Assembly: GCA_035501555.1 (NCBI GenBank)
Contig: DATJWA010000027.1
Location: forward strand, 256,156-320,155
Source of the DNA: Thermoplasmata archaeon
Lineage (GTDB): Archaea > Thermoplasmatota > Thermoplasmata > Lutacidiplasmatales > UBA184
Reading direction: 5' to 3'
Length of the DNA: 64,000 nucleotides
Of this stretch, positions 33,267 through 57,150 are shown in pieces. The notes under the pieces were generated by a model. The model worked only from the letters and a program-made list of their open reading frames with translations, was not told the origin of the DNA and searched no databases. Both the position numbers and the translations under genes were made by a program. The stretch's first letter is position 1. Each line of letters begins with the position of its first letter.

Positions 33267-33302
33267 CGGGATTAATCTAACAGGTGTCGGTTACAGCCCG
33301 TG
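33267..33302 (+). promoter_or_regulatory. Conserved paralog promoter block GGGCGGGATTAATCTAAC, 18 nt before the GTG start of cyclase A.
   Basis: The same block occurs upstream of five other paralogs at identical spacing. Confidence 0.6.
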
Positions 33303-35231
33303 GCCGAGACTCGGCGGCTCGCTGCCATCATGTTCACCGACATGGTGGGATTCACCGCGCTGGGCCAACGGAACGAAACGCTCTCGCTGGAGCTGCTCGA
33401 GGAGCAGCGAGCACTGCTCCGACCGATCTTCTCGCGGCACGGGGGCAAGGAGGTCAAGACCCTCGGAGATGGCTTCCTCGTGGAGTTCACGAATGCGCTC
33501 GAGGCGGTGCGGTGCGCCTACGAGATTCAGCGAGTAAGTCGCGAGTCAAACTACTCTCGTCCCTCGGACCGGCGGGTACTCCTCCGGGTCGGGGTCCATC
33601 TGGGAGACGTGGTGGAGGCGGACGGCGACATCTCCGGGGACGCAGTGAACGTTGCGTCGCGGATAGAGCCTCTCGCGGAAGCCGGAGGGGTTTGTATCAG
33701 TCGCCAGGTTTACGACCAAGTCCACAACAAGTTCGAGCTGCCACTAATGAGCCTGGGTCCACGCCGGCTCAAGAACGTAAGTACGCCCATCGAACTGTTC
33801 AAAGTGGGGATGCCCTGGACGGAAGGGGGTGGCGCCGGATTGTCCGAAGCCGACCGGAACCGGATTGCGATCCTTCCTCTCGCCAACTTCAGCCCAGCCC
33901 CCGGCGACGACTACTTCGCCGATGGCATGACAGATGAGATCATCTCCACCGTGTCGGGGATCAGTGGCCTCAGCGTGATCTCGCGCACCTCCGCGATGCG
34001 CTACAAGCAGTCCACGAAGAGTATGACCGAGATCGGACGCGAACTGAAGGCAGGAAAGCTGCTGGAAGGGAGTGTTCGGAAGTCCGGAAACCGGGTTCGG
34101 ATCACCGTCCAGCTGATCGACAGCGAAAGCGATGCCCATCTCTGGGCCAAGAGCTACGACGGCAGCTTGGACGACGTCTTCGAGACCCAGTCGGACATCG
34201 CGCGCAAGATCGCCGAGGCGCTGAAACTGCCCTCCCCTCGACCGGGGGGTCGGGCCACGAGTCCCGAGGTGCTTGCCCTCTGCCTTCAGGCACGCACGTT
34301 ATGGAACCGGTTCACCCCGGAAGCGAACGAGCAGGCGATCGTCCTGTACGAGGACGCGCTGAAGATCGACCCGGAATCCGCCCGTGCGATCGCCGAGCTT
34401 GCGGACTGTTACGCTTCCGCGGCGAACATCGGCTGGATGGACAAGAAAGAGGGTTACGAGAAGGCCCGGTCGCTGGCACGCCGTGCTCTCGAGCTGGACG
34501 AGTCGCTGCCCGAGGCCCACTTCGCCCTAGCTCACATGTTGATGGACGACGACTACCCCGCGGCGGAGATCGAGCTCAAGAAAGTCCTCTCACTGAACCC
34601 GAGCCACGCCGACGCCCATGAATGGTACGGAAGTGTTCTGCGGGGCCTCGGCCGCCTGGAGGAGTCGCTGGAGGAAGCCAGGAAAGCCTACGAACTGGAC
34701 CCGCTTCCGCCGGCGCGCGCCTTTTTCCTGGCCACAGAGTACTTCTTTGCCGGACGGAACGACGAAGCGCTCGCCATCTGCCAGAAGGTCATTCAGACCG
34801 AGCCCGGATACTCCCCGGCGTACTACGGCCGGGCCATTCTGAATGCCATCCGGGGATTGAGAGAGGAGGCCTACCGGGACCTGCGCAGTTACCGGAGGCT
34901 TACCAACGACATCCAGCACAAGAGCATCCAGGCCCGGATCGAAGCTCACCTGGGGAACAAGCAAGAAGCAACCCGGCTCATCGAGGAGACGCTGGCGCTC
35001 GTCGCCGCGAGCAACTCCCCGAAGGCTTGGAGCGACAGCGACCAGCTGTCGTACACCTATGCCCTAATCCAGGATCGAGAGCGGTTCTTTCCGTTCGTGG
35101 AATATTTGATTGATCACAAACTCATGAGCCCCGGTGAACTTCGGGACCCCTCGTACCAGAACATGGCGGGGGATCCTCGGTTTCCGGAACTGCGCAGAAA
35201 GCTTCGGGCGTCGTATGGGATCCCCGACTGA
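33300..35231 (+). CDS. Class III adenylate/guanylate cyclase (CHD) – TolB-N-like – TPR protein (paralog A, C-terminal subtype 1).
   Basis: GTG start. RRLAAIMFTDMVGFT, KTLGDGFL and GDAVNVASR cyclase motifs. ILPLANFS…YFADGMTDE TolB-N-like segment, then TPR repeats. Confidence 0.9.
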   Translation: MAETRRLAAIMFTDMVGFTALGQRNETLSLELLEEQRALLRPIFSRHGGKEVKTLGDGFLVEFTNALEAVRCAYEIQRVSRESNYSRPSDRRVLLRVGVHLGDVVEADGDISGDAVNVASRIEPLAEAGGVCISRQVYDQVHNKFELPLMSLGPRRLKNVSTPIELFKVGMPWTEGGGAGLSEADRNRIAILPLANFSPAPGDDYFADGMTDEIISTVSGISGLSVISRTSAMRYKQSTKSMTEIGRELKAGKLLEGSVRKSGNRVRITVQLIDSESDAHLWAKSYDGSLDDVFETQSDIARKIAEALKLPSPRPGGRATSPEVLALCLQARTLWNRFTPEANEQAIVLYEDALKIDPESARAIAELADCYASAANIGWMDKKEGYEKARSLARRALELDESLPEAHFALAHMLMDDDYPAAEIELKKVLSLNPSHADAHEWYGSVLRGLGRLEESLEEARKAYELDPLPPARAFFLATEYFFAGRNDEALAICQKVIQTEPGYSPAYYGRAILNAIRGLREEAYRDLRSYRRLTNDIQHKSIQARIEAHLGNKQEATRLIEETLALVAASNSPKAWSDSDQLSYTYALIQDRERFFPFVEYLIDHKLMSPGELRDPSYQNMAGDPRFPELRRKLRASYGIPD

Positions 35232-35369
35232 GCTCGCGATCGGTCATCCGTAACCAGACCGAGACGCTCCGAGAGGATCCGGATTCGACGCGGAGTAGAC
35301 TTCGGGATGTTATACACCGAGAGTGCCTAGCACGTAGGGGCCGGCAACGGTCTCAGGGGCAGTGCCACC

Positions 35370-35651
35370 ATGTCGGCATACTTGGTCGCGGACGTCGAGT
35401 GGAAGGACGAGGAGCAGTTGGCAAAGTACGGCGAGGGGCATTCCGAGCTCCTCGCCAGGTACGGTGGCCGGATCTTGGTCGGGTCTAAGGACGTCGAAGT
35501 TGTCGAGGGTAGCTGGAAGCCTCGCCAGCTGGTGATCTTCGAGTTCCCAACTCGGGAGGCGTTCCACGCTTGGTACGACTCGGCCGAGTATGCCCCTCAA
35601 CTCGCCCGACGCAAGCAGCATGCGGACTCGAACGTTGTAGTGGTCGAGTGA
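35370..35651 (+). CDS. DUF1330 family protein.
   Basis: MSAYLVADVEWKDEEQLAKYGEGH…, 93 aa. Confidence 0.8.
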   Translation: MSAYLVADVEWKDEEQLAKYGEGHSELLARYGGRILVGSKDVEVVEGSWKPRQLVIFEFPTREAFHAWYDSAEYAPQLARRKQHADSNVVVVE

Positions 35652-35684
35652 TGGGGTCGATCGAACGGCGACGATTGCCGAAAC

Positions 35685-35725
35685 GTGTCGGAGAGGGACC
35701 CAACTGAGTTCTTCCGCCTCCTAAG
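35685..35725 (+). repeat. tRNA-3'-end-like hairpin repeat.
   Basis: gtgtcggagagggacccaactgagttcttccgcctcc. Confidence 0.5.
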
Positions 35726-35841
35726 AGCGCGGCGCGGACGGATTCTGGGAGGGCTGAGACCCGGCCCAGTCTCCCTCGTCCGGTGCGGCGTCGGCGTGGA
35801 CGACCCAGGGGCGAACTGCCGATCCGGGCCAAACTGCCCAC

Positions 35842-35850
35842 TTTTATATT
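35842..35850 (+). promoter_or_regulatory. TATA box (TTTTATATT) 22 nt upstream of the peroxiredoxin ATG, implying a leaderless transcript.
   Basis: Seen in the sequence. The position is the archaeal −26/−27 convention relative to a transcription start site at or near the ATG. Confidence 0.55.
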
Positions 35851-35871
35851 GGAAAGCCCAAGGCGGACCTA

Positions 35872-36387
35872 ATGACGAACGCCGGCGGGAGCCGAACGAT
35901 CTCGATCTTGAAGCCGGGGATCCGGGCACCTGATTTCACGCTCAAGAGTACTCCTGATCAGAGCGTGTCTCTTCGAGATTTCCGGGGCCGGCCGGTCGTG
36001 ATCGCCTTCTATCCTGCCGACTGGAGCCCAGTCTGCAGCGACCAGATGGGACTTTACGCGCAGGTCATGCCCGAGTTCAAAAAATTCAATGCAGAAGTAC
36101 TGGGGATTTCCGTCGACGGTATATGGACCCATCTCGCCTTCGCGAAGGACCGCAAGCTGAACTTCCCGCTCCTCTCTGACTTCGAACCGAAGGGTGCGGT
36201 TTCCCGTTCGTACGGGGCATACGAGGCGCACGTCGGCGAGTCCGCGCGAGCTCTCTTCGTGGTTGATGCAAGAGGCTCCATCGCGTGGAGCATGCTCTCT
36301 CCCGACGGCGTCAATCCCGGAGCGGACGGGATTCTCTCCGCGCTCGAACGGCTCGAGCGAGACGCCCCTCGGAGTAAGTCCGCATGA
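35872..36387 (+). CDS. Peroxiredoxin (AhpC/TSA family).
   Basis: FYPADWSPVC peroxidatic Cys motif. 171 aa. Confidence 0.85.
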   Translation: MTNAGGSRTISILKPGIRAPDFTLKSTPDQSVSLRDFRGRPVVIAFYPADWSPVCSDQMGLYAQVMPEFKKFNAEVLGISVDGIWTHLAFAKDRKLNFPLLSDFEPKGAVSRSYGAYEAHVGESARALFVVDARGSIAWSMLSPDGVNPGADGILSALERLERDAPRSKSA

Positions 36388-39711: not shown

Positions 39712-39752
39712 GTGTCGGAGGGGGACACTGCTAAACTGCTCACATCCCCGAT
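39712..39752 (+). repeat. tRNA-3'-end-like hairpin repeat.
   Basis: gtgtcggagggggacactgctaaactgctcacatccccgat. Confidence 0.6.
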
Positions 39753-39893
39753 CTGACCGAGACCGGGAACACGCGAGTACAGGGCCGCACGTGATCAAGA
39801 CATCGCGATGGCAAGACGACCCGACGCGGTCGGGATTTCTGGCCGCCAGGTATGCCTGATCAGGTAGCCCGCCCGGCGCCGCCTCGATGAACT

Positions 39894-39929
39894 GGGGCTT
39901 AATCTAACCGAAGACGGTTACGCCCTGTG
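39894..39929 (+). promoter_or_regulatory. Conserved paralog promoter block GGGGCTTAATCTAAC upstream of cyclase B.
   Basis: Identical motif and spacing as in the other paralogs. Confidence 0.6.
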
Positions 39930-42900
39930 GCCGAAACCCGACGACTCGCCGCCATCATGTTCACCGACATGGTGGGGTACTCGGCTCTCGCCCAGCGGGA
40001 TGAATCCCTGGCCCTTCGGCTCTTAGACGAACACCGAGGGCTCCTTCGCACCATCTTTGGTGCCTATGCGGGTCGCGAGGTCAAGACCATCGGAGACGCG
40101 TTCCTCGTGGAGTTTCCAAGCGCCCTCCAGGCGATGGAGTGCGCCGTGGCCATTCAAAGAGAGCTTCGAGAGCGCAACGAACAATCCGGGGGAGGGCACA
40201 TCGAGCTCCGGATCGGTATTCACCTCGGAGACGTCATTGAACGGGCCGGGGACCTTCTCGGCGACGCCGTCAACATAGCCTCGCGCATCGAACCCCTGGC
40301 CGAAACCTCGGGGATCTGCATCAGCGGCCCGGTCTTCGACCAAGTCCGAAACAAGGTGCCCTACTCCTGCACCCAGCTCGAGCACGCGTTCCTGAAGAAC
40401 ATCGATACGCCCATGTCCGTGTACAGCCTGGATCTCCCGTGGGTCGTTCCTCCCGCAGCTCGGCTCACCCCGTGGACTGACCGAGAGTCGGAACTCGGAA
40501 CGATAGAGCGCATCATCGAAGCGGCCGCCCGCGGCCAGGGCAATGTCGTCGCGTTCACCGGCGAATCGGGAATCGGCAAGACCCGCCTCGCGGACGAAGG
40601 GATCCGCAAAGCGGAAGGGAAGGGATTCCGCACCCTACGAGGTCGGGGTCATCAGGACGAGCAACCGATTCCCTACTCACTGTGGGTCCAAGTGGCCCGA
40701 GGCGTGCTCCGGGACATTCCGGCCCCCCTCCTCTACAAGCTCTCCGCCGGTTGCGCGGCATCGCTCGTGAAGCTCGTTCCCGAGGTGGGCGAACGACTTG
40801 GCCAACTCCCTTCGGCGGGGGAGAATATTCCCGATGCTGCGCGACTCCAGTTCTTTGAGGGGATCGCCCAATTCCTGATCAACCTGAGCCGTGAGTCTCC
40901 ACTCCTGGTTCTGCTCGACGATCTGCAGTGGGCTGACCCCGGGTCGCTCCGACTGCTGGATTACTTGGCCGAACCTATCCGGAGCCAGTCGGTACTGCTG
41001 TTCCTCACGTTTCGAGACTCCTTGGAGGATGAAACCCCGCTATTGAAGACGGTCATTCAGGATCTCACCCACTCGCGGGCAGTCGTTCGGATCCCCGTGA
41101 GGCGCATGGAGGGGGGTCCCGCTCGCCAATTAGTGGGGGCCATCCTCGGAACCAAGGATCCTCCACCCGAACTCGTGGGTCTGGTTCGGCAGAAGACCGG
41201 CGGGAACCCACTCTTCGTGGAGGAACTCCTCCGGTCGTTGACGGAAGAGCGCCAACTGGTCCGTCGGGGCGAGAACTGGGACTCCTCGGCGATCGCCGAT
41301 GTAGGAGTCCCCTCCACCATGCGGGATGTTATTCTCAAGAGGGCGGCTCGCGCCGGCGAGCAAGCCAAGGACGTCCTCTCCGTCGCCGCGGTGCTGGGGA
41401 TGGAGTTCGACTTCGAGCTCCTCCAACGGGTGAGCGGTGTGGACCCCGATCGCTTGCTGGCGCAGGTCGAGGGTCTTCTCCGGGCCCGGCTCCTGCGAGA
41501 GCGGGAGATCGCTCCGGGTCGGTCGGTCTACACGTTCGCCGACGATCAGACGAGAGAGGTCCTCTACCGCGAGCTCTCACTGGTCCGACGTCAACGCTAC
41601 CACCTCAAAACGGCCCAAGCACTCGAAGGGCGGTTCGCGCGTGGGGGCGACGCAGTTGCGGGAGAACTCTCCCTGCACTATCATCGGGGCAACGACCTTT
41701 CGAGCGCGCTCAAGTGGACCCTCTTGGCGGGCGAGAACTCAGCCAGTAGCTACGCGCGGGAGCAGGCCGTCATGTACTACCGTACGGCGCTCGAAATCCT
41801 GAAGGAGGCTCCCAACGAGCGTACTCGGGCCGAAGTTCTCGAGAGATTGGGGACCGAGTTGGAGATCCTCGGGCAGTACGAGGAGTCGGTACGTAGAAGG
41901 ACCGAGGCGTCGGAGGTGTACGAACGGCTGGGAGATCGACTGCGCGCCGGGGCGGCCCTCCACCAAGCCGCGTCCCACTCGGGCTGGACGCTCCTCGGTG
42001 AGTTTCCCTTCGCGGAGGCGCCGCTCACCAAGGCCAAGGAGCTGCTGGAGTCCGTTCCTCCCAGTCCGGAACTCGCGAGGTTGTACCTGGACTACGCGGC
42101 GTACTTGGGAGGAGCCGGCCGGACGAAGGAGGCCCGGGCCCTGTGGTCCCGGTCCCTGGAGCTCGCCGATAGCGTGGGAGCCCCGGTCGTGAAGGCCGCC
42201 ATATGCCTCGAACTCGCGAAGACCGCTCCCTCCGGGGCCCGAGACGAGGTCCGACGCAACATTGACCTGGCCCTCGAGATCGGCCTCGAGCACGACCCTC
42301 CGACGGCGCTGGAGGCGTACTTTCACGGGGCTTGGTACGCCGCGACGGGACTGGGCGACATGGACGGCTGTCAAGAGTGGATTCGAAGGGCGGTCGAGTA
42401 CGCCCGGAAGGTGAAGGCCCCGAACTTCGAGGTGGCGATCCAGGGAAGCCTCGGCTCGTTCGCCCGGATATGGGTCTCGGACCTCGACGAGTCGCTCCGC
42501 TTGGCGGTGGAGCATCAAAAGTCCATTCGAGCACTCAACCAGGCACAAACGGCACACAATCTCTATCACCTCATCGCAGTCCCGTTGCTTCGGGGAGAGC
42601 TCGACGGTTTGCCGGACCTGCTCCACCAGGCCGAGGAAATCCTTTCGAAGGAGATGGCGTTGTATCAGGAGATCTGGTTCTCCTTCATTTCCGGGCTGAT
42701 AGGCCTCGTGAGCGGAGATCCCTCCGGCGGCGAGAAGCAATTGCTGCGAGGTATGAAGGCCCTCCGAAAGCGGGGAGAGGTAGAGTTCGACGGCTTCATT
42801 CCGATCTGGCTCCAGACGCTGCTCTTCGATGCCGCCATTTCTCAACAGGCATTGCAGCGAGCCGAAGACTACCTGGCGGGGCTCGCCGGATCGGTCGAGC

Positions 42901-43217
42901 GCGTGGGGGGAGCTCCGGCGCTCGCATACCTCGCTCGCGCACGAGGTCTGCTTGCCCTGCACACCGGCCGCGAGCCAGAAGCCTTCGAACGACTCCTGGA
43001 GAGCACCCAACTCTGGCGGAAGGCCGGTTGGAAGATCGAATTGGCCCGGACCTGCGTGGACCTTGCGGGGGTCGAGATTAAGCGTGGCTCGCTTGACCGT
43101 GCGACTTCTCTCCTCGACGAAGCCATCGGGCAATTCCGTTCCCAGGGCGCCGATAGAGCAGTACACCAGCTCCTAGAGCTTCGCCAGAGCCTCGGAACGA
43201 GCCCGATCTCTTCCTAG
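39927..43217 (+). CDS. Class III cyclase (CHD) – STAND/AAA ATPase – TPR protein (paralog B, Rv0386-like architecture without an obvious LuxR HTH).
   Basis: GTG start. Cyclase motifs. Walker A FTGESGIGKTRL. Long C-terminal TPR/helical repeat region. 1096 aa. Confidence 0.9.
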   Translation: MAETRRLAAIMFTDMVGYSALAQRDESLALRLLDEHRGLLRTIFGAYAGREVKTIGDAFLVEFPSALQAMECAVAIQRELRERNEQSGGGHIELRIGIHLGDVIERAGDLLGDAVNIASRIEPLAETSGICISGPVFDQVRNKVPYSCTQLEHAFLKNIDTPMSVYSLDLPWVVPPAARLTPWTDRESELGTIERIIEAAARGQGNVVAFTGESGIGKTRLADEGIRKAEGKGFRTLRGRGHQDEQPIPYSLWVQVARGVLRDIPAPLLYKLSAGCAASLVKLVPEVGERLGQLPSAGENIPDAARLQFFEGIAQFLINLSRESPLLVLLDDLQWADPGSLRLLDYLAEPIRSQSVLLFLTFRDSLEDETPLLKTVIQDLTHSRAVVRIPVRRMEGGPARQLVGAILGTKDPPPELVGLVRQKTGGNPLFVEELLRSLTEERQLVRRGENWDSSAIADVGVPSTMRDVILKRAARAGEQAKDVLSVAAVLGMEFDFELLQRVSGVDPDRLLAQVEGLLRARLLREREIAPGRSVYTFADDQTREVLYRELSLVRRQRYHLKTAQALEGRFARGGDAVAGELSLHYHRGNDLSSALKWTLLAGENSASSYAREQAVMYYRTALEILKEAPNERTRAEVLERLGTELEILGQYEESVRRRTEASEVYERLGDRLRAGAALHQAASHSGWTLLGEFPFAEAPLTKAKELLESVPPSPELARLYLDYAAYLGGAGRTKEARALWSRSLELADSVGAPVVKAAICLELAKTAPSGARDEVRRNIDLALEIGLEHDPPTALEAYFHGAWYAATGLGDMDGCQEWIRRAVEYARKVKAPNFEVAIQGSLGSFARIWVSDLDESLRLAVEHQKSIRALNQAQTAHNLYHLIAVPLLRGELDGLPDLLHQAEEILSKEMALYQEIWFSFISGLIGLVSGDPSGGEKQLLRGMKALRKRGEVEFDGFIPIWLQTLLFDAAISQQALQRAEDYLAGLAGSVERVGGAPALAYLARARGLLALHTGREPEAFERLLESTQLWRKAGWKIELARTCVDLAGVEIKRGSLDRATSLLDEAIGQFRSQGADRAVHQLLELRQSLGTSPISS

Positions 43218-43344: not shown

Positions 43345-43385
43345 GTGTCGGAGGGGGACACTACGGAATTCTTCGTATCATCACC
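43345..43385 (+). repeat. tRNA-3'-end-like hairpin repeat.
   Basis: gtgtcggagggggacactacggaattcttcgtatca. Confidence 0.55.
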
Positions 43386-43907: not shown

Positions 43908-43947
43908 GTGTCGGAGGGGGGAACTACGAATGGTTCAAATCCCTCAC
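43908..43947 (+). repeat. tRNA-3'-end-like hairpin repeat.
   Basis: ggtgtcggaggggggaactacgaatggttcaaatccctcac. Confidence 0.6.
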
Positions 43948-44026
43948 AGGGCAAATGCGGCCCAGTGGCCACTTTCGACCCGCGAATGAACCCGGTCTGA
44001 GTACGTGGCCAGAGCCCTCCGTGAAG

Positions 44027-44062
44027 GGGTCTTAATCTAACGAATGCCCTTCTCGCGCCGTG
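44027..44062 (+). promoter_or_regulatory. Conserved paralog promoter block GGGGTCTTAATCTAAC upstream of cyclase C.
   Basis: Same motif and spacing. Confidence 0.6.
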
Positions 44063-47000: not shown

Positions 47001-47095
47001 AAGCGATTGCCAGCGAGGAGGTCGGTGACACGAAAGCCGCCGCACGGTCTGTCGAGATGGCGTTGCAAAGAGCGCGCGGACTGAACTATGCATAG
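44060..47095 (+). CDS. Class III cyclase (CHD) – STAND/AAA ATPase – TPR protein (paralog C).
   Basis: GTG start. RRLAAIMFTDLVDFS, Walker A LGGESGIGKTRL. 1011 aa. Confidence 0.9.
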   Translation: MASRRRLAAIMFTDLVDFSALAQQDEALALRTVDEISSLLRPLFAAHDGREVKALGDGFLVEFDSALDATECSIEIQRRLFHRNQSAGVRPAEMRIGIHLGDVVRKDGDILGDAVNIASRIEPLAEASGICISGPVFEQVSNKIPYLCVQLDHAFLKNIGTPITVFSVDLPWHAPPAARVTPWTDRTAELGSLREALRGAAHGEGAIIALGGESGIGKTRLAEEAVRKAESTGVRVLRGRRFQEELNAPYSHWAQAARFFVREAPPSMVFKVCDGCQREAIGLVPELSDRLGPQPPAPSLGPKQTRLRFFEGVARFFQNLAKETPLVLLLDDFQWADPDSVSLLEYFGAQIKERPILVILTYRDTELDPRGALGKALFDLRRHGILREISLKRFDPDNSRDLVGAVLGGTTPPRDVIEPLLEKTGGNPLFVEELCRSLVEDRSLVRTFDGWQAKPDARIEVPPTVREVIRRRVDWIGPEAESVLAIASVFGNEFEFERLKEVSEVDSDRLLLLVEAMLRARLLREKETAPGRSIYQFGDEQTRDVLYAGLSLVRRQRYHLRAGQVLERAWGNLANERAEELAYHFRQGNAPDRALEYYVRAGDRANQVYAREDAASAYEKALNLLEEAIAHKEDERALRERALSVSGRLGDTQWNLGRHSDSIATYLRGTRLAAGLDSITQAKAWVTLGWGYDGNHDYDAALASCDAAERALGAPPPALEADPWSAEWIGIQRLRMDVYYWSPDRHRNAARYAETLARIRPILEHSPNPLDRVRLYHDLRSLDWMQNRGWISDEGLAYDRMALAAANESGDPEWINGSVFCVGFSHFWRGEVEQARAHLTTSLRESERMGLTTERSRAITYLMATERRSGDVMAAERLIPGVLSAAEAAELPEYVAMALATASWVAWRAGDLNRAAAEGERALKIWHEIPNSYPCDWMAIWPLIGVAIRRGEIPRAVHLARGLLPLSQNPLPPELEGLVRQAIASEEVGDTKAAARSVEMALQRARGLNYA

Positions 47096-47238: not shown

Positions 47239-47279
47239 ATGTCGGAGGGGGGAACTCTGGAATTGTTCAAATCCCCCAC
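47239..47279 (+). repeat. tRNA-3'-end-like hairpin repeat.
   Basis: atgtcggaggggggaactctggaattgttcaaatcccccac. Confidence 0.6.
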
Positions 47280-47414: not shown

Positions 47415-47450
47415 GGAGTTTAATCTAACTGAAGCAGCTCTCGACTCGTG
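47415..47450 (+). promoter_or_regulatory. Conserved paralog promoter block GGGAGTTTAATCTAAC upstream of cyclase D.
   Basis: Same motif and spacing. Confidence 0.6.
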
Positions 47451-49364
47451 GCCTCCACTCGGCGCCTCTCCGCCATCATGTTTACGGACATGGTTGGTTC
47501 GACGGCATCGGCCCAGGCCAACGAGGCCCAGGCCCTCAAGCTCAGGGACGAGCAGGCGGCTCTCCTCCGGCCTCTATTCGCCGTTCATCAGGGGCGCGAA
47601 GTCAAGTCGATGGGCGACGGGTTTCTCACGGAGTTCGACAGTGCGCTCCGGGCCGTTCAGTGCTCCATCGACATCCAGCAACATCTGCACGAGCGAAATT
47701 CGCAACCCGGGGTGGCCCCGATTCGGCTTCGAATCGGGATCCACCTCGGCGATGTCGAGCAGCGCGAGAGCGACATTTTTGGAGACGCGGTGAACATCGC
47801 CTCACGAATCGAATCGATCGCCGAGCCCAGCGGCATTTGTGTCTCAGGAGCCGTCCACGAGCAGGTACGGAACAAGATTGCCGACCGGTTCGAGAAGCTC
47901 CCGCCCACGCTGCTCAAGGGATTGGAACGCTCGATGGACCTGTACCGGGTTCTCCTGCCCTGGACCCGTGGCGAAGCCCCCGTGAGGGGCACCGGACCTC
48001 CACGACTGGCGGTGCTTCCGTTCTCCAACATCAGCCCGGACCTGAAGGACGAGTACTTCGCAGACGGTCTTACGGAGGAACTGATCACCGTCCTCTCGCA
48101 GTTGCGCGAGATTCGAGTCATTGCCCGAACCTCAGTCGCCCAGTACAAATCGACGAACAAGTCGGCGGCCCAGATCGGGGCCGAGTTGGGCGTCGATGCT
48201 ATTTTGGAGGGCAGCGTCAGAAAGTCAGGGGATGATCTCCGTATCACCGTCCAACTCATCGATGGTGCGACGCAGGAGCACACGTGGGCGAACACCTACG
48301 ACCGGAAGCTCGAGAAAGTATTCGCGGTCCAGGCAGAGATTGCGAAGCAGGTGGCGGAAGGGCTCAGAATCAAGCTTCGGCCAACGGAGACGGCGCGGCT
48401 CGAGAGTCAATCCCCGGTGATGCCGGATTCCTACCTCGCGTATCTTAGAGGCCGTTCCCTACTGGTATCACAATGGTCCGACAAGGGCTTCAGAGCGGCA
48501 AAACAACACTTCGAGGTTGCGCTTTCAATAGACGAGACAAACGCGAGGGCCCACTCCGGATTGGCGGATGCACTCAAGCATATCGCGTGGGCTGAGAACG
48601 AACCTCTAACCAACGACCAGGAGTCCGTGGTTAGGGACCACGTCGCTCGGGCCCTGCAACTCGACCCCAACCTTGCGGAGGCTCACTGCTCGCTCGGACT
48701 GATTCTCTGGGACGAGAATGATCACCGGGGCGCCGCGAAGGAGATGGAACTCGCCCTGTCCATCAATCCGAGTTTGTCCTACGCGCACTTCGAGTACGCG
48801 CTCATCCTCCTGTGCTTTGCCCGATCCGAGGACGGCCTCCGAGAGCTCGCGCTGGCCGAGGAACTGGACCCGATCTCGGTGCAGTACGCGGATTGGCACG
48901 CGTTTTTGCTCATCATGCTTCGAAGACTCGACGAGGCGGCGGTCAGACTGGACAGGCTCAAGGAGTTGGATAAAGCCGGCATCGTCTACAGCGGCACACT
49001 CAGCTACTATCTGTGGGCGAGGGGCGATTTCGATGGCGCCCTTCAGGCATGTGACCGACTCGCAGAGCTCAGAGGCGAACCCGCATGGACCGGCCGCGTC
49101 ATGTCACTTTCGAGTATGGGCAAGAAAGAGGAGGCTTGGAAGTTAATCCGGGAAGCGGAAGCATTGCCGAAAAAGCCACTCCTAGAAGAACGGGCGATGT
49201 GGCGGGCGTTTGTCGGTGATGTCGATGGCTGTTTCCAGTACCTGGATGAGTCATTCGAGAGTCACCAGCTCACCACTCAGGTCTGGATGTTCGAACCGGC
49301 GCTCGGACCAATTCGGTCTGACCCCAGGTTCGCTCAACTCCTGAAGAAGCTGAATCTCGCGTAA
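47448..49364 (+). CDS. Class III cyclase (CHD) – TolB-N-like – TPR protein (paralog D, C-terminal subtype 2).
   Basis: GTG start. Cyclase motifs. LAVLPFSNISPDLKDEYFADGLTEE segment. TPR repeats. Confidence 0.9.
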   Translation: MASTRRLSAIMFTDMVGSTASAQANEAQALKLRDEQAALLRPLFAVHQGREVKSMGDGFLTEFDSALRAVQCSIDIQQHLHERNSQPGVAPIRLRIGIHLGDVEQRESDIFGDAVNIASRIESIAEPSGICVSGAVHEQVRNKIADRFEKLPPTLLKGLERSMDLYRVLLPWTRGEAPVRGTGPPRLAVLPFSNISPDLKDEYFADGLTEELITVLSQLREIRVIARTSVAQYKSTNKSAAQIGAELGVDAILEGSVRKSGDDLRITVQLIDGATQEHTWANTYDRKLEKVFAVQAEIAKQVAEGLRIKLRPTETARLESQSPVMPDSYLAYLRGRSLLVSQWSDKGFRAAKQHFEVALSIDETNARAHSGLADALKHIAWAENEPLTNDQESVVRDHVARALQLDPNLAEAHCSLGLILWDENDHRGAAKEMELALSINPSLSYAHFEYALILLCFARSEDGLRELALAEELDPISVQYADWHAFLLIMLRRLDEAAVRLDRLKELDKAGIVYSGTLSYYLWARGDFDGALQACDRLAELRGEPAWTGRVMSLSSMGKKEEAWKLIREAEALPKKPLLEERAMWRAFVGDVDGCFQYLDESFESHQLTTQVWMFEPALGPIRSDPRFAQLLKKLNLA

Positions 49365-49403
49365 CACGACCCGATTGTGCCCCCGTTCGGCAAGCGACCC
49401 TTT

Positions 49404-49440: not shown

Positions 49441-49461
49441 AGAGGAGGCGGGGTCCAGGAA

Positions 49462-50814
49462 TCACCGCGATACCGCGAGGAACGTCTCCCAGTTCCCCTC
49501 CACGCCCTTGAACCGGCGGGACCCCCGTTCCTCAAACCGCACCTCTGAGCCTACGGATAGGTCACGGACAGTTCGTGAGGTCACGATCTCGCCGCCGCCA
49601 GCGGAATCGCAGATCCGGGACGCAAGGTGGACCGCCATCCCGACGACGTCGTTGTCTGCCACGAGGCACTCACCGGTGTGAACTCCGGCCCGAAGCTCGA
49701 GGCCCCGTTGTTTCGCCTGGTCCCGAGCGGATTGTGCGAAGCGTACCGCCCGGGTCGGTCCGTCGAAGGTGGCGAGGAACCCATCGCCAGTCGTCTTCAC
49801 CAATCGACCCCGGAAGCGGGTGATTTCGGCGCGGGACCCAGCGAGGAAGGACTCCAGAATCTCCCTCCAACTGTGATCACCCAGCCGGGAGGCGAGTCGG
49901 GTCGAATCGACGATGTCGGCGAAGACTACGGTCTTGAGTACTCGGTCCTCGTCAGGCAAACCCGATGGTAGGCTGGTGAGGAACGATTTCTGGGCACGGA
50001 GGGAGGCGGCGCTCGCTTCGGGGTTCGCCCAGAAGAAGTGGTCTCGTCCCGGAATGGAAACAATCCGAGACCCAGCCACGCGGGAGGCGACGTAATCCGC
50101 GTTCTCCTCACGAACGGCCCTGTCGCCCGGGCATTTCAGGATGAGCGTCGGGACGTGAACCGCCGGAAGAGTCGCCCGAACGTCAATTTCAAGGTTCATC
50201 CGCGCGAGGGAGGCGGCCGCGGAGGGCGACGAACCAAACCGGATCACCCGCCCGTACCATCGTTTGAAATCGGGATCCGCTACCCGGCTCGGGGCCTGTG
50301 TCGACAAAAGTCGGTCGATGTGCGGAGGCGTCCCCCAATCCTCGTCCGAAAGTCGGATGGACTCCTCCACCTCTTCGCGCGTGGGGGCGAAGGCGAAGTC
50401 GGGAGCCCACGCACCTCGGACCGTCGGAGCGATAAGGATGAGGCCCAAGGTTCGTTCCGGGTAGGTCGCCGCGAACAGGAGGGCCATCGCCGCCGTGTCG
50501 GTGGCTCCAAAAATCACCGCACGATGACTCTTCGCCGCGTCCATGACGGCCCGGAGATCATCCATCCGGTCCTCGAGCGTCGGCGTCCCAACCGCTCGGT
50601 CCGAGAGACCCACACCGCGCTTGTCCCACAGGATCACCCGGGCGGCGCTCCCTAGATCCCGGAAGTATCCCGCGACCGCTGGCTGCTCCCAGACGAGTTC
50701 GAGATGAGAGATTGCCGTACGACCGTAGACCAGGTCGACGGGACCCGCCCCGAACACCTCGTAGGCGATGCGAAGGTCGCCGCTACGGGCGTACCGGACT
50801 TCGGGAACCTCCAT
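49462..50814 (-). CDS. Alpha/beta-hydrolase – class III cyclase fusion (LipJ/Rv1900c-like, paralog H).
   Basis: N-terminal alpha/beta-hydrolase fold. C-terminal CHD (FADIVDSTRLASRLGD…KTTGDGFLATF…GECLVADNDVVGMAVHLASRI). Confidence 0.9.
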   Translation of the reverse strand: MEVPEVRYARSGDLRIAYEVFGAGPVDLVYGRTAISHLELVWEQPAVAGYFRDLGSAARVILWDKRGVGLSDRAVGTPTLEDRMDDLRAVMDAAKSHRAVIFGATDTAAMALLFAATYPERTLGLILIAPTVRGAWAPDFAFAPTREEVEESIRLSDEDWGTPPHIDRLLSTQAPSRVADPDFKRWYGRVIRFGSSPSAAASLARMNLEIDVRATLPAVHVPTLILKCPGDRAVREENADYVASRVAGSRIVSIPGRDHFFWANPEASAASLRAQKSFLTSLPSGLPDEDRVLKTVVFADIVDSTRLASRLGDHSWREILESFLAGSRAEITRFRGRLVKTTGDGFLATFDGPTRAVRFAQSARDQAKQRGLELRAGVHTGECLVADNDVVGMAVHLASRICDSAGGGEIVTSRTVRDLSVGSEVRFEERGSRRFKGVEGNWETFLAVSR

Positions 50815-50925: not shown

Positions 50926-50964
50926 GGTCGGAGGGGGGAACTCCCAGTTTGTTCAAGTCCCCCA
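50926..50964 (+). repeat. tRNA-3'-end-like hairpin repeat.
   Basis: ggtcggaggggggaactcccagtttgttcaagtcccccac. Confidence 0.55.
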
Positions 50965-50975
50965 CCGAAGTACGG

Positions 50976-52197: not shown

Positions 52198-54660
52198 ATG
52201 CGAGACCCCGTGTGGTTCTCGGTTCTCCATCGCCGGACCTTGTCGCGCCCGTCCAAACGCATGAGGCCCGCAGGTCAACAGTCAGACTCGGCGAACGGCA
52301 CGACTTCGTCCACGACCCGCATTGAAGGGATCTCTTCCCCGTCGGCCCCGCCCGCCGATATCGGTGTCCCGACCCGGACGGTCGGCCGGGAAGGCGAAAT
52401 CCGCACAATCGCCGACTTTCTTGGACGAATTGAAAGGAGGTCGGAGAGCGTTCTTCTCTTCTCCGGAGAAGCCGGGGTCGGTAAAACACGTCTCCTCCGT
52501 GAGGCCGAGTCGAGGGCCACGAAGATCGGAATGACGGTCCTCTCGGTCGATTGTGGTGCCCTGGACCACGGGGTCGCCTACGGTCCATGGGTCGAATTGC
52601 TTCGGCACTACCTTGAAACGACTCCTCGGAAGCAGGCGTATTCAACGGTCCAGCCGCACCTGCGTGCCCTCAGCTCCATCGCGCCGGGGTTGAACGACCT
52701 TGTGTGGCTCTTTGACCCGAGCCACAGGTCCGGCACCGACGGGCGTGAGACTCGGGTCGAACCGATTGGCCGTTTCTTTGTCGCCATCGCGGACGAACGT
52801 CCGCTGCTGCTCGCGATAGACGACCTCGGCAGTGCGGACAACTCTTCGCTAGAGCTCTTGGGGAGTGTCGCGCGCTTGGGTCGACCGTTCCCCCTCGGAA
52901 TCGTGGGCACCTATCGCGACACGCAACCGGAGGAGAACAAACCGCTGCGGCACCTGCTGTCGAACCTCGAGAGTCAGAAGTCTTGCACCACCGTGACTGT
53001 CCGCCCCCTCGACCGAGATCACCTGGGTGTGCTCATCGGCGAGGTGCTCCAAACGAAGGAGGTCCCGACCGCGTTGCGGGATGCCGTGTTCGAGAAGTCC
53101 CGAGGCAACCCGTACTATGCCGCGGAGATTGCCCAATGGCTGCTGGAGGCGGGTACCCTCCGTGCGACGTCCGCGGGCCGGTCGTGGGACTCGGACTCGA
53201 AATTGGAGCTACCCGCCCCCTTCGAGCGAGCGATCGAGGTCCGTCTCGGTCGGACCCCGAGCCTGAACCTCCCCGTCGGGAGTATCCAGGATCGACTTGC
53301 GATTCTGCCGTTTGCCAACCTCAGTCCGGACCCGGGTGACGCGTATTTCGCCGACGGACTCACCGAGGAGATGATTGGCGTGGTCTCCCAGGTGAAGGGG
53401 TTCCAGGTGATTGCCCGCACCTCAGTGATGCCCTACAAATCTGCCTCGAAAGGGGTCTTCCAGATCGGGCTCGAACTGGGCGTCTCATCGATCCTCGAAG
53501 GAAGCGTTCGTCGAGCCGGAGATCGGTTGCGGATCGCGGTGCAATTGATCGACGTACGATCCCAGGCCCACCTCTGGGCGCACACCTTCGAGCGCGCGCT
53601 CGGCGACGTGTTTGCCGTGCAGTCCGAGATCGCGAGAAAGGTGGCGAATGCACTCAAGATCAAATTGGGCCCGGCCGAGAGGAGTCGGCTGGAATCCAGA
53701 CGCTCGGTGCGGCCGGATTCGTACCTTGCCTACCTGAGGGGCCGGATCTCGTTGCATACCCATACCCAGGCATCCTTGGAGACCGCGAAGAACGAATTCG
53801 AACGGTCCATTTCGCTCGACCCGATGAACGCCGCCGCTCATGCCGGACTCGCCGCTGTAACGGAGATGATAGCGTGGTGGTTCCCAGGACCAGGCTTCAA
53901 GAGATCGACCCGAGGGAGCCGGGGATTGGCGGCGCGGGCGCTCGACCTCGACCCAGACCTCGCGGAGGCGCATGAGGCGGTCGCGTTGGTCCTGGAAGCC
54001 GAGTACGACTATCGGGGGGCGGAAAAGGAATTCAAGTTGGCTCTGGAGCTGAGTCCGAGCTACTCGATCGCGCACCATAACTACGCCTCTATTCTGGAGG
54101 AGATGGGACGGCCCGAAGAAGCGCTCTTGCAGTACTCACTCGCCGAGGGAGCCGACCCTCTTTGGGCGAGGAACCTCTTCTGGTTCGCCACCTTACTCGT
54201 CTGGTCGGGTCGGCCGGACGAAGCTCTCGTGAAGATCCGAGCGCTCGGCCAACTGGAACCCGACGGGGTGGACTATCACGCCGCCCTCACCACCTACTAC
54301 CTTTCCCAGTCCAAACCCCAGGAAGCTCTCGACGAGCTTCGTAAGGTCGTCGAGCTGGAGCCAGAACCTCGTCGCAAGTCGGTCTATCGGGCTCGCTACC
54401 TCGCGCTTTCGGGCAGGAAGAAGGAGGCCGAGGCCCAACTTCGGCACGAAGAATCGTTGCCCGTAGTTGGCGTCATCACGTGGGCCATCGCGCTGACGTA
54501 CGCCGAAATGGGGAACCTCGATGACTGTTTTCGTCTGATGGAGCAGGCCGCCGACGCTGGGTACGTTGCGTTCCAGCAACCGAGGCTGAATCCGATTTAC
54601 GAAAACGTCCGAACCGACCCGAGACTCCAGCAATTGTTAGCAAAGTTGGGCATCCCATGA
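52198..54660 (+). CDS. STAND/AAA ATPase – TolB-N-like – TPR protein lacking the cyclase domain (paralog E).
   Basis: Walker A FSGEAGVGKTRL. ILPFANLSPDPGDAYFADGLTEE segment. TPR repeats. No CHD and no TTAATCTAAC promoter block. Start uncertain: 52198 or 52261. Confidence 0.8.
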   Translation: MRDPVWFSVLHRRTLSRPSKRMRPAGQQSDSANGTTSSTTRIEGISSPSAPPADIGVPTRTVGREGEIRTIADFLGRIERRSESVLLFSGEAGVGKTRLLREAESRATKIGMTVLSVDCGALDHGVAYGPWVELLRHYLETTPRKQAYSTVQPHLRALSSIAPGLNDLVWLFDPSHRSGTDGRETRVEPIGRFFVAIADERPLLLAIDDLGSADNSSLELLGSVARLGRPFPLGIVGTYRDTQPEENKPLRHLLSNLESQKSCTTVTVRPLDRDHLGVLIGEVLQTKEVPTALRDAVFEKSRGNPYYAAEIAQWLLEAGTLRATSAGRSWDSDSKLELPAPFERAIEVRLGRTPSLNLPVGSIQDRLAILPFANLSPDPGDAYFADGLTEEMIGVVSQVKGFQVIARTSVMPYKSASKGVFQIGLELGVSSILEGSVRRAGDRLRIAVQLIDVRSQAHLWAHTFERALGDVFAVQSEIARKVANALKIKLGPAERSRLESRRSVRPDSYLAYLRGRISLHTHTQASLETAKNEFERSISLDPMNAAAHAGLAAVTEMIAWWFPGPGFKRSTRGSRGLAARALDLDPDLAEAHEAVALVLEAEYDYRGAEKEFKLALELSPSYSIAHHNYASILEEMGRPEEALLQYSLAEGADPLWARNLFWFATLLVWSGRPDEALVKIRALGQLEPDGVDYHAALTTYYLSQSKPQEALDELRKVVELEPEPRRKSVYRARYLALSGRKKEAEAQLRHEESLPVVGVITWAIALTYAEMGNLDDCFRLMEQAADAGYVAFQQPRLNPIYENVRTDPRLQQLLAKLGIP

Positions 54661-54745
54661 CAATCCGTTGATTTCGACCTCCCGTCGACGGTGAACCCCC
54701 CCTTTCGGAGAGGAGACCGGGATTGCGAAGGGCGTTGCACGATGA

Positions 54746-54786
54746 ATGTCGGAGGGGGACATTACTGAATTGTTCATATCCCCGAC
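54746..54786 (+). repeat. tRNA-3'-end-like hairpin repeat.
   Basis: atgtcggagggggacattactgaattgttcatatccccgac. Confidence 0.65.
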
Positions 54787-54927
54787 TTGGGGGTCAGCGA
54801 GAAAGCACGATTGCGAGACCACCGGTAGTCGGGTTATCGCGGTTACCGGACTACCCGGAGCGGCTGGGCTCCCGACACGCCAGATGCCCACAGTCGACCA
54901 GGTAAATCGCGGGCTTTTCCGCGAACC

Positions 54928-54963
54928 GGGGCTTAATCTAACGAATACCGTTTCCGGGCCATG
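54928..54963 (+). promoter_or_regulatory. Conserved paralog promoter block GGGGCTTAATCTAAC upstream of cyclase F.
   Basis: Same motif and spacing. This gene uses an ATG start. Confidence 0.6.
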
Positions 54964-56892
54964 GCCTCCAGTCGCCGACTCGCCGCCATCATGTTCACGG
55001 ACATGGTCGGCTCCACGGCTTCAGCGCAGGCCAATGAGGCAAGGGCCCTCCGGTTGCGGGACGAGCAGGCCGGACTGGTCCGTCCCCTCTTCGCCGCCCA
55101 TCAAGGGCGCGAAGTCAAGTCAATGGGCGATGGCTTCCTAGCCGAGTTCGATAGCGCACTCCGAGCCGTGCAGTGTGCGATTGACATCCAACAGCATTTG
55201 CACGAACGGAATTCCCAGCCAGGCGTGGCACCGATTCAACTTCGTATTGGAGTTCATTTGGGGGACGTCGAAGAACGCGAGCGCGACATCTTCGGCGACG
55301 CAGTCAACATCGCCTCACGCATCGAGCCGCTCGCGCCCCCCGGAGGCGTCTGCATCTCGGGAGAGGTATCCAGTCAGATCAGAAACAAGATCCCGAACCG
55401 GCTCGAGAAACTGCCGCCGACGGCGCTGAAGGGGTTGCAGGCATCGATCGACATCTATCAAGTGGTATTGCCTTGGACGGAAGCGGGCGGCGCTGGGTTG
55501 TCCGAAGTCAATCGGAACCGGATCGCGATCCTTCCCCTCGCCAACTTCAGTCAAGCCGCCGGCGACGAGTACTTCGCGGACGGGATGACAGACGAGATCA
55601 TTTCGACGGTGTCAGGGATCAGCGGCCTCAGCGTGATCTCGCGGACATCTGTAATGAGATACAAACAGACCTCCAAGAGCATGACCGAGATCGGACGCGA
55701 ACTAAAGGCAGGAAAGCTCCTGGAAGGGAGCGTTCGGAAGTCCGGAAATCGGGTGCGGATCACCGTCCAACTGATCGACGCCGAGAGCGACGCCCATCTC
55801 TGGGCCCAGAGCTACGACGGGAGCATCGACGACGTCTTCGAGACCCAGTCCGAAATCGCTCGCAAGATTGCAGAGGCGCTGAAGCTACCCTCGCCTCGGG
55901 GCGGAGGCCGGGCTGAGAGTCCTGAGGTCTACCCGCTCTGCCTCCAGGCCCGCACATTGTGGCATAAGTTCACCCGCGAAGCGAACGAGCAGGCGATGCT
56001 CCTGTTGGAAGGCGCCCTAAAGATCGATCCCGAGTCCGCTCGGGCGACGGCCGGGCTCGCGGATTGTTACGTTACCGCAGCTAACGCCGATTGGGTTGAG
56101 AAGGACGAAGGTTACGGCAAAGCTAGAACGCTGGCCAGACGTGCGCTCGAGCAGGACGCCTCGCTGCCCGAGGCCCATTTCGCCCTAGGCCATGTGTTGA
56201 TAGTGGACGACTACCCCGCAGCCGAGGCCGAACTCAAAAAAGCGCTCACGCTGAACCCCAGTCACGCGGACGCCCACGAGTGGTACGCGGAAATCCTGCG
56301 AGGCATGGGTCGAGTGGCTGAGGCGACGCGGGAAGTCGAGAGGGCCCTCGAACTGGACCCGCTCCCGCCCAGTCGGGCGTTTTTCTTGGCGACCCAATAC
56401 TACTTCGAAGGGCGTAATGACGAGGCGATCGCAGTCTGCAACAAGATCATCCAGACGGAGCCGGGGTATGCCTGGGCGTATGCCGGGCGGGCCGTGCTGA
56501 CTTCCATCAACGGAGAGAGGGAGAGAGCCTACCGGGATTTGCAAACCTACAGACGACTACAGCGGGACGAGATCGCGTACAAGAGCCTCCAGGCTCGGAT
56601 CGAAGCTCACCTGGGAAACAAGGAAGAAGCGTCACGCCTCATCGATGAGGTGCTCGCGCTCGAGGCAGCGAGTGAATCCCCGAATGCGCGAAGCGAAACT
56701 TACCAGCTATCCTTTGCGTATGCCCTCATCGATGATCGAGCGAGATTCTTTCCGTTCGTGGAAGGTCTGATCGACCACAATAAGATGGATCCCGGTGAAC
56801 TTCGGGACCCCGCGTACCAAAACATGGCGAGTGATCTTCGATTCGCATCCCTCCTCCAGAAACTCCGCAAATCCTACGGCATTTCCAACTGA
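54961..56892 (+). CDS. Class III cyclase (CHD) – TolB-N-like – TPR protein (paralog F; mosaic of a D-like CHD and an A-like C-terminus).
   Basis: The CHD is ~85% identical to paralog D. The C-terminal 450 aa are ~80% identical to paralog A. Confidence 0.9.
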   Translation: MASSRRLAAIMFTDMVGSTASAQANEARALRLRDEQAGLVRPLFAAHQGREVKSMGDGFLAEFDSALRAVQCAIDIQQHLHERNSQPGVAPIQLRIGVHLGDVEERERDIFGDAVNIASRIEPLAPPGGVCISGEVSSQIRNKIPNRLEKLPPTALKGLQASIDIYQVVLPWTEAGGAGLSEVNRNRIAILPLANFSQAAGDEYFADGMTDEIISTVSGISGLSVISRTSVMRYKQTSKSMTEIGRELKAGKLLEGSVRKSGNRVRITVQLIDAESDAHLWAQSYDGSIDDVFETQSEIARKIAEALKLPSPRGGGRAESPEVYPLCLQARTLWHKFTREANEQAMLLLEGALKIDPESARATAGLADCYVTAANADWVEKDEGYGKARTLARRALEQDASLPEAHFALGHVLIVDDYPAAEAELKKALTLNPSHADAHEWYAEILRGMGRVAEATREVERALELDPLPPSRAFFLATQYYFEGRNDEAIAVCNKIIQTEPGYAWAYAGRAVLTSINGERERAYRDLQTYRRLQRDEIAYKSLQARIEAHLGNKEEASRLIDEVLALEAASESPNARSETYQLSFAYALIDDRARFFPFVEGLIDHNKMDPGELRDPAYQNMASDLRFASLLQKLRKSYGISN

Positions 56893-56929
56893 GATCTCGT
56901 TCGGTGGTTCGGCGCCCTGGCTTGGAAGG

Positions 56930-56970
56930 GTGTCGGAGGGGGACACTACTGAATTCTTCATATCCCCGAC
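56930..56970 (+). repeat. tRNA-3'-end-like hairpin repeat.
   Basis: gtgtcggagggggacactactgaattcttcatatccccgac. Confidence 0.65.
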
Positions 56971-57114
56971 AACCCCCGTTTCTCGATGAAAGCCCGATTA
57001 CGCAACTACCTGTAGTCGGGAAAGTGCGATTGTGAGACTACACGAAGCGCTCGGCCTTCTAGGGGTTTGGATACATCAAATCAACTGGGCGGAACAAGAC
57101 CTCCGCGTTGAGCC

Positions 57115-57150
57115 GGGGCTTAATCTAACAAGTGCCGTTCCCGGGGAGTG
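57115..57150 (+). promoter_or_regulatory. Conserved paralog promoter block GGGGCTTAATCTAAC upstream of cyclase G.
   Basis: Same motif and spacing. Confidence 0.6.

Follow-up and report, generated by a model that had tools for sequence, protein, structure and literature searches.

The cyclase genes and their host

The 64-kb window (the whole stretch of contig DATJWA010000027.1 analysed here) carries six paralogous genes, in one array and in the same orientation, that share a short sequence block just upstream of their start codons. What is this block, and why is it so alike in six genes? Paralog A (33300-35231, on the + strand like the other five) encodes 643 amino acids (aa) from a GTG start, with a class III cyclase domain, a TolB-like middle region and tetratricopeptide repeats (TPR). 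B (39927-43217, 1096 aa, GTG) and C (44060-47095, 1011 aa, GTG) combine cyclase, AAA_16 and TPR parts, and D (47448-49364, 638 aa, GTG), F (54961-56892, 643 aa, ATG) and G (57148-59073, 641 aa, GTG) cyclase and TPR. The N-terminal domain matches PF00211 in all six proteins, at 53–61 bits against a cut-off of 21.9, and an alignment of the six domains shows that the FTD, GDGF and GDAVNxAxR motifs are kept. By this family membership they are class III nucleotidyl cyclases, with an activity that is predicted. Identity among them is 38–71% overall and 50–60% within the cyclase domain. A literature search returned no paper on Thermoplasmata cyclases. The same order of modules (cyclase, TolB-like or AAA_16, TPR), with many paralogs per genome, is found in the bacterial receptor-type class III cyclases with TPR or AAA-ATPase modules, namely CyaD1, CyaD2 and CyaK of Sinorhizobium meliloti and the Rv0386-type proteins of Mycobacterium; unlike these, the copies described here are archaeal (Thermoplasmata, Nitrososphaerales, Bathyarchaeia) and have archaeal promoters.

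The host can be placed from several features of the DNA. Ribosomal protein S3Ae (eS1) is encoded at 59331-60179 (− strand), next to a tRNA(CAT) with an anticodon-loop intron of ~30 nucleotides (nt) at 59203-59304 (− strand; Rfam, 57 bits). ARAGORN reported no tRNA in the window; the intron-containing gene that it missed was recovered by Rfam. When the six N-terminal domains were scanned against one genome per species, the matches were mainly archaeal metagenome-assembled genomes (MAGs), with fewer bacteria, and the archaeal ones belonged to Thermoplasmata (best 85% and 81% identity), Nitrososphaerales, Bathyarchaeia and Conexivisphaerales. One Thermoplasmata MAG contig, L003, has orthologous cassettes and a 40-nt repeat in common with the window. 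Because of S3Ae, the intron-containing tRNA and nearest homologues in Thermoplasmata MAGs, the window is archaeal, and its source is most likely a high-GC soil or peat Thermoplasmata archaeon. Archaeal transcription machinery in the host is indicated by the same ribosomal protein and tRNA intron and by Thermoplasmata kin that share both the upstream motif and the junction repeats.

The upstream block

The ten-nucleotide sequence TTAATCTAAC occurs six times in the window, on the + strand only, at 33272, 39899, 44032, 47420, 54933 and 57120. These six exact copies lie upstream of A, B, C, D, F and G, as a preliminary description of this DNA had it. Shuffled windows gave 0.20 matches on average, and none of 100 shuffles got to six. 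From the end of the motif to the first in-frame start codon after a stop, the distance is exactly 18 nt in every copy, which corrects the 18–19 nt first given; the start codon is, as had been described, GTG in five genes and ATG in F, where it stands at the homologous position. In all six genes the upstream in-frame stop is the TAA inside the motif itself. There is therefore no start farther upstream, and the GTG or ATG is the sole possible start before the conserved RRLAAIMFTD. The gene caller of the public contigs began B at 39957 (not 39927) and C at 44090 (not 44060), at an internal ATG (the M of AAIMFTD) 10 codons past the conserved GTG, with loss of the RRLAAI residues. Starts that automatic callers had placed 10 codons late are now corrected.

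The block of A (33267-33299, + strand, as for all six) comprises a G-rich segment at 33267-33271 that resembles a B recognition element (BRE), a TATA-type box TTAATCTAAC at 33272-33281 and an 18-nt spacer ending in C(−1). Its homology with the orthologous cassette of L003 starts at 33268 (−32). B (39894-39926), F (54928-54960) and G (57115-57147) have an exact GGGCTTAATCTAAC ahead of the 18-nt spacer, C (44027-44059) has GGTCTTAATCTAAC and D (47415-47447) GAGTTTAATCTAAC, again with 18 nt. The GGGC prefix ascribed to all six is exact only in B, F and G; in A, C and D there are 1–2 mismatches over GGGCTTAATCTAAC. In agreement with the preliminary description, a check of the upstream regions did not find the motif before E (52198), H (50814, − strand) or the family member at 12812.

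Conservation in other genomes

How far does the block extend beyond the window? Family members in Thermoplasmata MAGs have (G)GGnyTTAATCTAAC ending 18 nt before GTG, a few with weaker variants; examples with the motif at 18 nt are found in L003 (twice), L004, L048, L049, L051, L061 and L069. A larger set was picked from metagenome contigs by the coding-start pattern only, GTGG-N8-CGNCGNCTNNCNGCNATCATGTTCACNGA, the motif not being used. This set holds 95 promoters, non-redundant at 85% identity and numbered with the G of GTG as +1. The exact 10-mer is present in 36 of them, compared with six of six in the window.

In the sequence logo of the 95 promoters, positions −33 to −30 are G-rich (G in 48–70 of the sequences, with G−32 in 70) and are followed by C at −29 (60/95) and by the consensus TTAATCTAA at −28 to −20, in which T−27 is found in 92, A−25 in 87, T−24 in 74 and C−23 in 72 of the 95. 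Nearer the gene come AA at −16/−15 (51/95 and 50/95), G at −11 (66/95), a T-rich stretch at −10 to −7 (T in 49–68/95; T−9 in 68), then C−6 (72/95), G−5 (71/95) and G−3 (69/95), and finally C−1, in 86/95, before the G of GTG. The whole module holds ~23 bits of information, ~12 of them in the 9-bp box, and the BRE-like positions 0.2–0.55 bits each. From −80 to −40 the information is ~0 bits; this region has been randomised, so sequence without constraint has been scrambled and the positions that are still conserved are under selection. Within the motif TTAAT is the best conserved part and the AAC end the least (~60%). The TAATC core is present in 79 of the 95, with a spacing of 18 nt in 65 and of 17 nt in 12 of the 79, and 16/95 have another AT-rich box (TTTTTTAGTC, CTTAAGG, TTATTC and others) at the same place. 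A Shine-Dalgarno (SD)-like sequence was seen in only 3/95.

Could the block instead be the −10 element of a bacterial σ70 promoter, or part of a transcribed 5′ untranslated region, for example an A/U-rich enhancer bound by S1 or a riboswitch? TAATCT does look like a −10 hexamer, the high GC content and frequent GTG starts are as in Actinobacteria, and cyclase–AAA–TPR proteins are common in bacteria. The window is archaeal, however, and the bacterial homologues recovered have neither the Thermoplasmata motif nor the CAyAACGGnTTTATC block that other archaea have in its place (see below). No −35 element is conserved, nor any other upstream element (none 17 bp upstream). At the RNA level, structure analysis gave no pairs involving motif or spacer and 0 covarying pairs, the first codons were likewise without a conserved fold, and Rfam had no match for the motif region at E≤1. 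On these results a cis-regulatory RNA or riboswitch is rejected, and a bacterial or untranslated-region element of any of these kinds is highly improbable.

Farther upstream, ~12–16 of the 95 promoters have CCCGTTTCGAAC, a near-palindrome around TTCGAA located at −70 to −64 from GTG (~40 nt upstream of the TATA box). Carriers include L147, L125, L138 and L089 and, in the window, paralog D at ~47385. It may be the site of an upstream regulator in one subfamily.

Specificity for the cyclase family

No other gene of the window (~43 other called genes) has the motif, even at one mismatch. Thermoplasmata loci totalling 231 kb gave 17 matches at ≤1 mismatch, each before a family member and one of them with 17-nt spacing, and in 960 kb of Thermoplasmata-type DNA 101 of the 119 TTAATCT heptamers precede cyclase N-termini. 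A generic consensus before most genes of the genome, the outcome that the preliminary description had named as fatal to its proposal, is contradicted by the ~43 window genes that lack the motif and by these 101 heptamers. On the sequences compared, the motif is family-specific and not generic. The only other genes in the 960 kb with TTAATCT at the right distance are two DUF1330 genes, in L158 (5773-6087) and L164 (11834-12148), which have the full module, GGGGCTTAATCTAAC followed by 18 nt and ATG, with a similar spacer. Both lie directly upstream of a cyclase A orthologue. The DUF1330 gene of the window (35370-35651) is placed just downstream of A and has a different promoter. Judged by gene order, the 93-aa DUF1330 gene is a syntenic partner of cyclase A, and co-regulation of the family, with DUF1330 carrying the same promoter in two contigs, is plausible from these arrangements.

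The family members of Nitrososphaerales and Bathyarchaeia (loci L005-L071) have a different but related block, CAyAACGGnTTTATC, and in 755 kb AACGGNTTTATC occurs 18 times, each time before a family member. Here the start codon is TTG in 44 of 63, and the box begins ~37±2 nt upstream with variable spacing. Because of this distance and its variation, the sequences suggest that the mRNAs of these groups have a short leader.

Is the block then more than a promoter? An addition to the promoter reading would be that ATCTAAC together with the spacer GGAAGCGGTTTTCGGGCC forms the operator of a dedicated factor, or a site for a TBP/TFB variant, that switches the family and DUF1330. Several observations point this way. 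The information in the module and in its 9-bp box exceeds what one would expect of a generic TATA box; C−23, T−22, A−21 and A−20 are kept while other genes of the window use quite different boxes; the non-homologous DUF1330 genes of L158 and L164 have the same module at the same distance; and the second phylum has a family block of its own. Against it, 16 of the 95 promoters have swapped the box, in place, for an unrelated AT-rich sequence and the AAC end is the least conserved, both of which fit a TATA box better. Clear dyad symmetry is lacking as well, the loci examined share no consistently linked regulator gene, and the DUF1330 case could be explained by local duplication of the neighbouring promoter. 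We regard a dedicated factor as possible but doubtful, and nothing observed calls for one.

A probable core promoter placed for leaderless initiation

Work on archaeal promoters has described a TATA box of 8 bp, which lies between −30 and −20 with its centre ~27 nt ahead of the transcript start, a BRE ~5 bp farther upstream, an A/T-rich proximal element near −10, a pyrimidine–purine pair at −1/+1 and leaderless mRNAs without an SD sequence (PMC5316973). If +1 is the G of GTG, the logo of the cyclase family matches these elements, with a G-rich and weakly conserved segment in the place of the BRE. An AT-rich box of ~8 bp stands at a fixed position (−28 to −20, also where alternatives replace it in 16/95), taking the start codon as +1; an A/T-rich −10 element and a pyrimidine–purine pair at −1/+1 are present; and the start codon would lie at the 5′ end, given SD-like sequences in 3/95 and the TAA within the motif. 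The box is fixed in position and replaceable in sequence by other AT-rich boxes, and in this it behaves as a TATA box rather than a strict operator. All this makes it very probable, as far as sequence and position can tell, that the block is the core promoter (BRE/TATA) of each cyclase gene, positioned for a leaderless GUG-initiated mRNA. The TATA box, G-rich BRE-like segment and leaderless placement put forward in the preliminary description are thus supported by the archaeal host, the logo of 95 promoters and the rarity of SD sequences.

How would such a promoter work? The roles below are assigned from position and published archaeal promoter geometry, with the start codon as a proxy for +1. 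TBP would bind TTAATCTA(AC), at −28 to −19, as the TATA box, and TFB would contact the G-rich −33 to −29 as the BRE. The T-rich −10 to −7 would serve as proximal promoter element and C(−1)/G(+1) as initiator, and RNA polymerase would start at, or within ~1 base of, the G of GTG. The resulting mRNA would be leaderless, its 5′ end being the GUG start codon, and an SD sequence, absent here, would not be needed. A shared promoter and a weak GUG leaderless start would give the family one common, probably modest, expression setting.

The other genes of the window offer a comparison. They have varied TATA-like boxes (TTAAGTA, TTATATA, TTTAAGG, ATAGATA, TACATAA), usually after G-rich sequence, which begin at −27 to −44; about nine lie at −27 to −33, as in the cyclases. 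Genes with boxes farther away often have a GGAGG-like SD near −8. From its sequence the organism appears to use both leaderless and SD-led initiation, with the cyclases in the leaderless class.

Several points weigh against this reading. The TATA centre, at ~−24.5, is ~2 nt nearer the start than the textbook ~−27, if still inside the published range of −30 to −20, and +1 is set by the start codon as proxy rather than by a mapped transcript 5′ end. The BRE-like part is rich in G, unlike the A-rich BRE of Thermococcus or haloarchaea, and its conservation is only moderate: at −33 to −31 G occurs in 57–70/95, with weak information, and G-rich sequence also precedes the boxes of other window genes. 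We know of no BRE consensus for the host lineage. C−23 and the strong CTAA exceed the expected need of TBP, and the signal may in part belong to another factor. Family specificity is measured on the ~43 called genes and on ~1 Mb of DNA that had been selected for its cyclase content. Gibbs sampling for a generic promoter in 45 non-family upstream regions returned G-rich noise, and an AT profile over 478 'first start' ORFs (open reading frames; ~1 Mb) had too much noise to place the TATA box across the lineage, since many of these starts are not the true ones. As these profiling attempts failed, the generic promoter of the organism is described only qualitatively, from the ~43 called genes. Finally, 5′-terminal GUG is, by analogy with the archaea tested, a poor initiator, and its use throughout a family is unusual.

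On this last point there is published work to compare. In Haloferax volcanii GUG starts 6% of leaderless mRNAs, and those with GUG are weakly expressed; in a short-leader reporter a change from AUG to GUG lowered translation by 83% (PMC4983044). In Thermococcus onnurineus AUG starts 94.9% of leaderless mRNAs (PMC5316973). Taken with these precedents, the GUG found throughout the family, and the TTG of the other phylum, suggest that a low protein output has been selected for. Low output plausibly fits signalling enzymes present in many copies. If leaderless GUG initiation is confirmed, the cyclases will be a family-wide case of a start type deemed inefficient in the archaea studied to date.

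Ancestry of the module

How did six genes come to share this promoter? In a neighbour-joining tree built from 115 cyclase domains, the paralogs of the window belong to distinct clades (A; B and C; D and F; G), and each clade has close orthologues elsewhere (distance ~0.1) with the exact 10-mer. The exact 10-mer is scattered over the entire tree, and the variants are scattered derived states. This spread, with the paralogs in separate clades, argues that the motif is ancestral and selected, and gene conversion is not needed. As read from the tree and the logo, the ~33-nt module is ancestral to the cyclase family in this lineage and is held by purifying selection in every old paralog.

The preliminary description had offered a spread of promoter and 5′ end by duplication or gene conversion, and this is not borne out. 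Recent concerted evolution of this kind would account for an exact 10-mer in every window copy when fewer than half of the metagenome promoters have it, and the genes do form one same-orientation array. But the paralogs share no more than 38–71% identity in protein; they fall in separate clades, each with motif-bearing close orthologues elsewhere; the region from −80 to −40 and most of the spacer differ among the copies; and synonymous sites of the first 20 codons have not been homogenised. Concerted evolution is largely refuted by these comparisons, and we give it little credence.

The nucleotide similarity of the six genes does run on, as described earlier, into the first ~17 codons. Is there an additional signal in the coding sequence? 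At columns with an invariant residue, codons are identical in 57% of pairs for codons 2–20 and in 49% for codons 21–175, and on this synonymous-site comparison an extra nucleotide constraint in the first 17–20 codons is rejected. The similarity is, on sequence grounds, due to the conserved β1 strand and metal-binding Asp (RRLAAIMFTD), with a GC content at third codon positions of 0.71–0.80. What had been noted as conservation through ~17 codons is therefore real as similarity and, in place of a special constraint, reflects protein constraint and codon bias.

Relation to known promoters

The closest known relatives of the block are the canonical leaderless promoters, with BRE, TATA box, proximal promoter element and initiator, of T. 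onnurineus (PMC5316973) and H. volcanii (PMC4983044). They are alike in the AT-rich box of 8–9 bp at −30 to −20, a purine-rich upstream segment (here weakly conserved), an A/T-rich −10, a pyrimidine–purine pair at −1/+1, the lack of an SD sequence and a start codon at the 5′ end. In contrast to them, the BRE-like part of the cyclase promoters is rich in G, where theirs is A-rich or CGAAA; a C is conserved inside the box, nearly all starts are GUG, and the family shows near sequence identity instead of a loose consensus.

A second comparison is the Thermococcales glycolytic motif, a regulon element bound by TrmB-family regulators that overlaps the archaeal core promoter. It, too, is a sequence common to functionally grouped genes, sits at or beside BRE/TATA and serves coordinated control. 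Unlike it, the cyclase block is without dyad symmetry, and its conserved part is the TATA box itself with its flanks. The block is an ordinary archaeal promoter type under unusually strict conservation across one gene family, and how archaeal promoters are understood to work is left unchanged by this result. It does provide a testable promoter model (TATA, BRE-like segment, −10, initiator and predicted +1) for archaea without a cultured member or mapped starts. It also brings out a class III cyclase sensor family that has expanded in soil Thermoplasmata, Nitrososphaerales and Bathyarchaeia, each group with its own promoter block.

The surrounding low-GC island

The cyclase array stands in a region of lower GC, 60–65% across ~28-60 kb (the array and other accessory genes), with ~72% in the window flanks. 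Within it a hairpin-like repeat of ~40 nt (consensus TGTCGGAGGGGGACACTACTGAATTCTTCATATCCCCGAC, cores TGTCGGAGGGGG) recurs, always in gene orientation, at 39713-39752, 43346-43385, 43909-43948, 47240-47279, 50926-50965, 54747-54786 and 56931-56970, and in degenerate form at 33202, 35686 and 36997. At its start the repeat has 12–14 nt that equal the tRNA(CAT) 3′ end in reverse complement; this tRNA gene closes the array at 59203, exactly at the border between the low-GC island and the 72%-GC flank. The units between repeats are A with DUF1330; AhpC with thioredoxin; B; C; D with H; E; F; and G. Of the genes that lack the motif, E (52198-54660) has an AAA_16 domain and then, with homology to D and G, a TolB-like region and TPR, but no cyclase domain, and tblastn found no cyclase remnant upstream of it. 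H (49462-50814, − strand) joins an α/β-hydrolase to a C-terminal cyclase that shares just 32% identity with the others.

The repeat is also present in L003 (1674, 9788, 12475, 14734), L069 and L051. The cassettes of L003 include an alcohol dehydrogenase, an AhpC–Trx–MFS–TetR–MBL unit and two cyclases; its blocks of homology with the window stop at the repeat cores, and the order of cassettes differs. At the other ~116 metagenome promoters the repeat is nearly absent, so it is a lineage-specific feature of the island, independent of the promoter motif. The ORFs scanned in the window and in L003 yielded no integrase.

From its sequence, the island looks like an array of tRNA-att-flanked cassettes. 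Tycheposons are tRNA-targeting integrative elements that form tandem arrays with partial-tRNA repeats (bioRxiv 10.1101/2020.12.28.424599), and archaeal integrons form cassette arrays (PMC9668308). By analogy, the island resembles the former more closely than the latter. Common features are a low-GC island by a tRNA gene, units of one or a few genes in the same orientation, repeats whose core is the tRNA 3′ end and a cassette order that varies between related genomes. The differences are the lack of an integrase among the window ORFs scanned, repeats that are not attC-like, and a promoter for each cassette; the island repeats are limited to the host lineage and the promoter motif is not.

Could the motif itself be a recombination site at the boundary of a mobile cassette? 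The integron attC site has an inverse core RYYYAAC and a core GTTRRRY. ATCTAAC (for example 33275-33281) fits the first and its reverse complement GTTAGAT the second, the genes form a cassette-like array with bounding repeats, and homology between the A cassettes of L003 and the window starts right at the block, at −32. The fit of a degenerate 7-mer within a 10-mer, however, arises by chance in ~1% of cases by our own estimate. There is no inverted partner (L′/R′) within reach and no hairpin, the motif lies ~186 nt downstream of the junction repeats and occurs in ~100 contigs that have none of them, and the AAC demanded by attC is the least conserved part where TTAAT is the most. What is left is a lone heptamer resembling a half-site, without partner or fold and upstream rather than downstream of the ORF. 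We judge the resemblance to be coincidence, and an attC site can practically be discounted.

Returning to the core promoter, one may ask whether promoter and island could belong to a single system. A dedicated factor, either a regulator or a TBP/TFB variant, would read TTAATCTAAC and the spacer and switch dozens of GUG-leaderless cyclases and DUF1330 together, and in this lineage the genes would travel as self-expressing single-gene cassettes flanked by recombination sites that stem from the tRNA(CAT) 3′ end, served by an integrase in trans. This combination is speculative and we hold it to be unlikely. If true, it would amount to a dedicated regulon signature of uncultured soil or peat archaea and a cassette platform distinct from integrons.

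Some further observations concern the island and its surroundings. Public assemblies of the region end at ~21960 and ~39040, consistent with a variable island. A 62-nt block recurs upstream of F (54801-54862), G (56988-57049) and B (~39770-39830) and in L003 (~9840-9900), ~80–140 nt 5′ of the TATA box; it holds palindrome-like ACCACCGGTAGT / ACTACCTGTAGT and could be a protein-binding site or part of a cassette arm. Upstream of paralog A, an HxlR gene (31216-31593, − strand) is divergent from a gene of 138 aa (31665-32081, + strand). The intergenic region between them (31594-31664) has an AT-rich TATATAAT box beside the inverted repeat GATATCCTTTGGATATT, and looks from its sequence like a typical, putative autoregulated operator.

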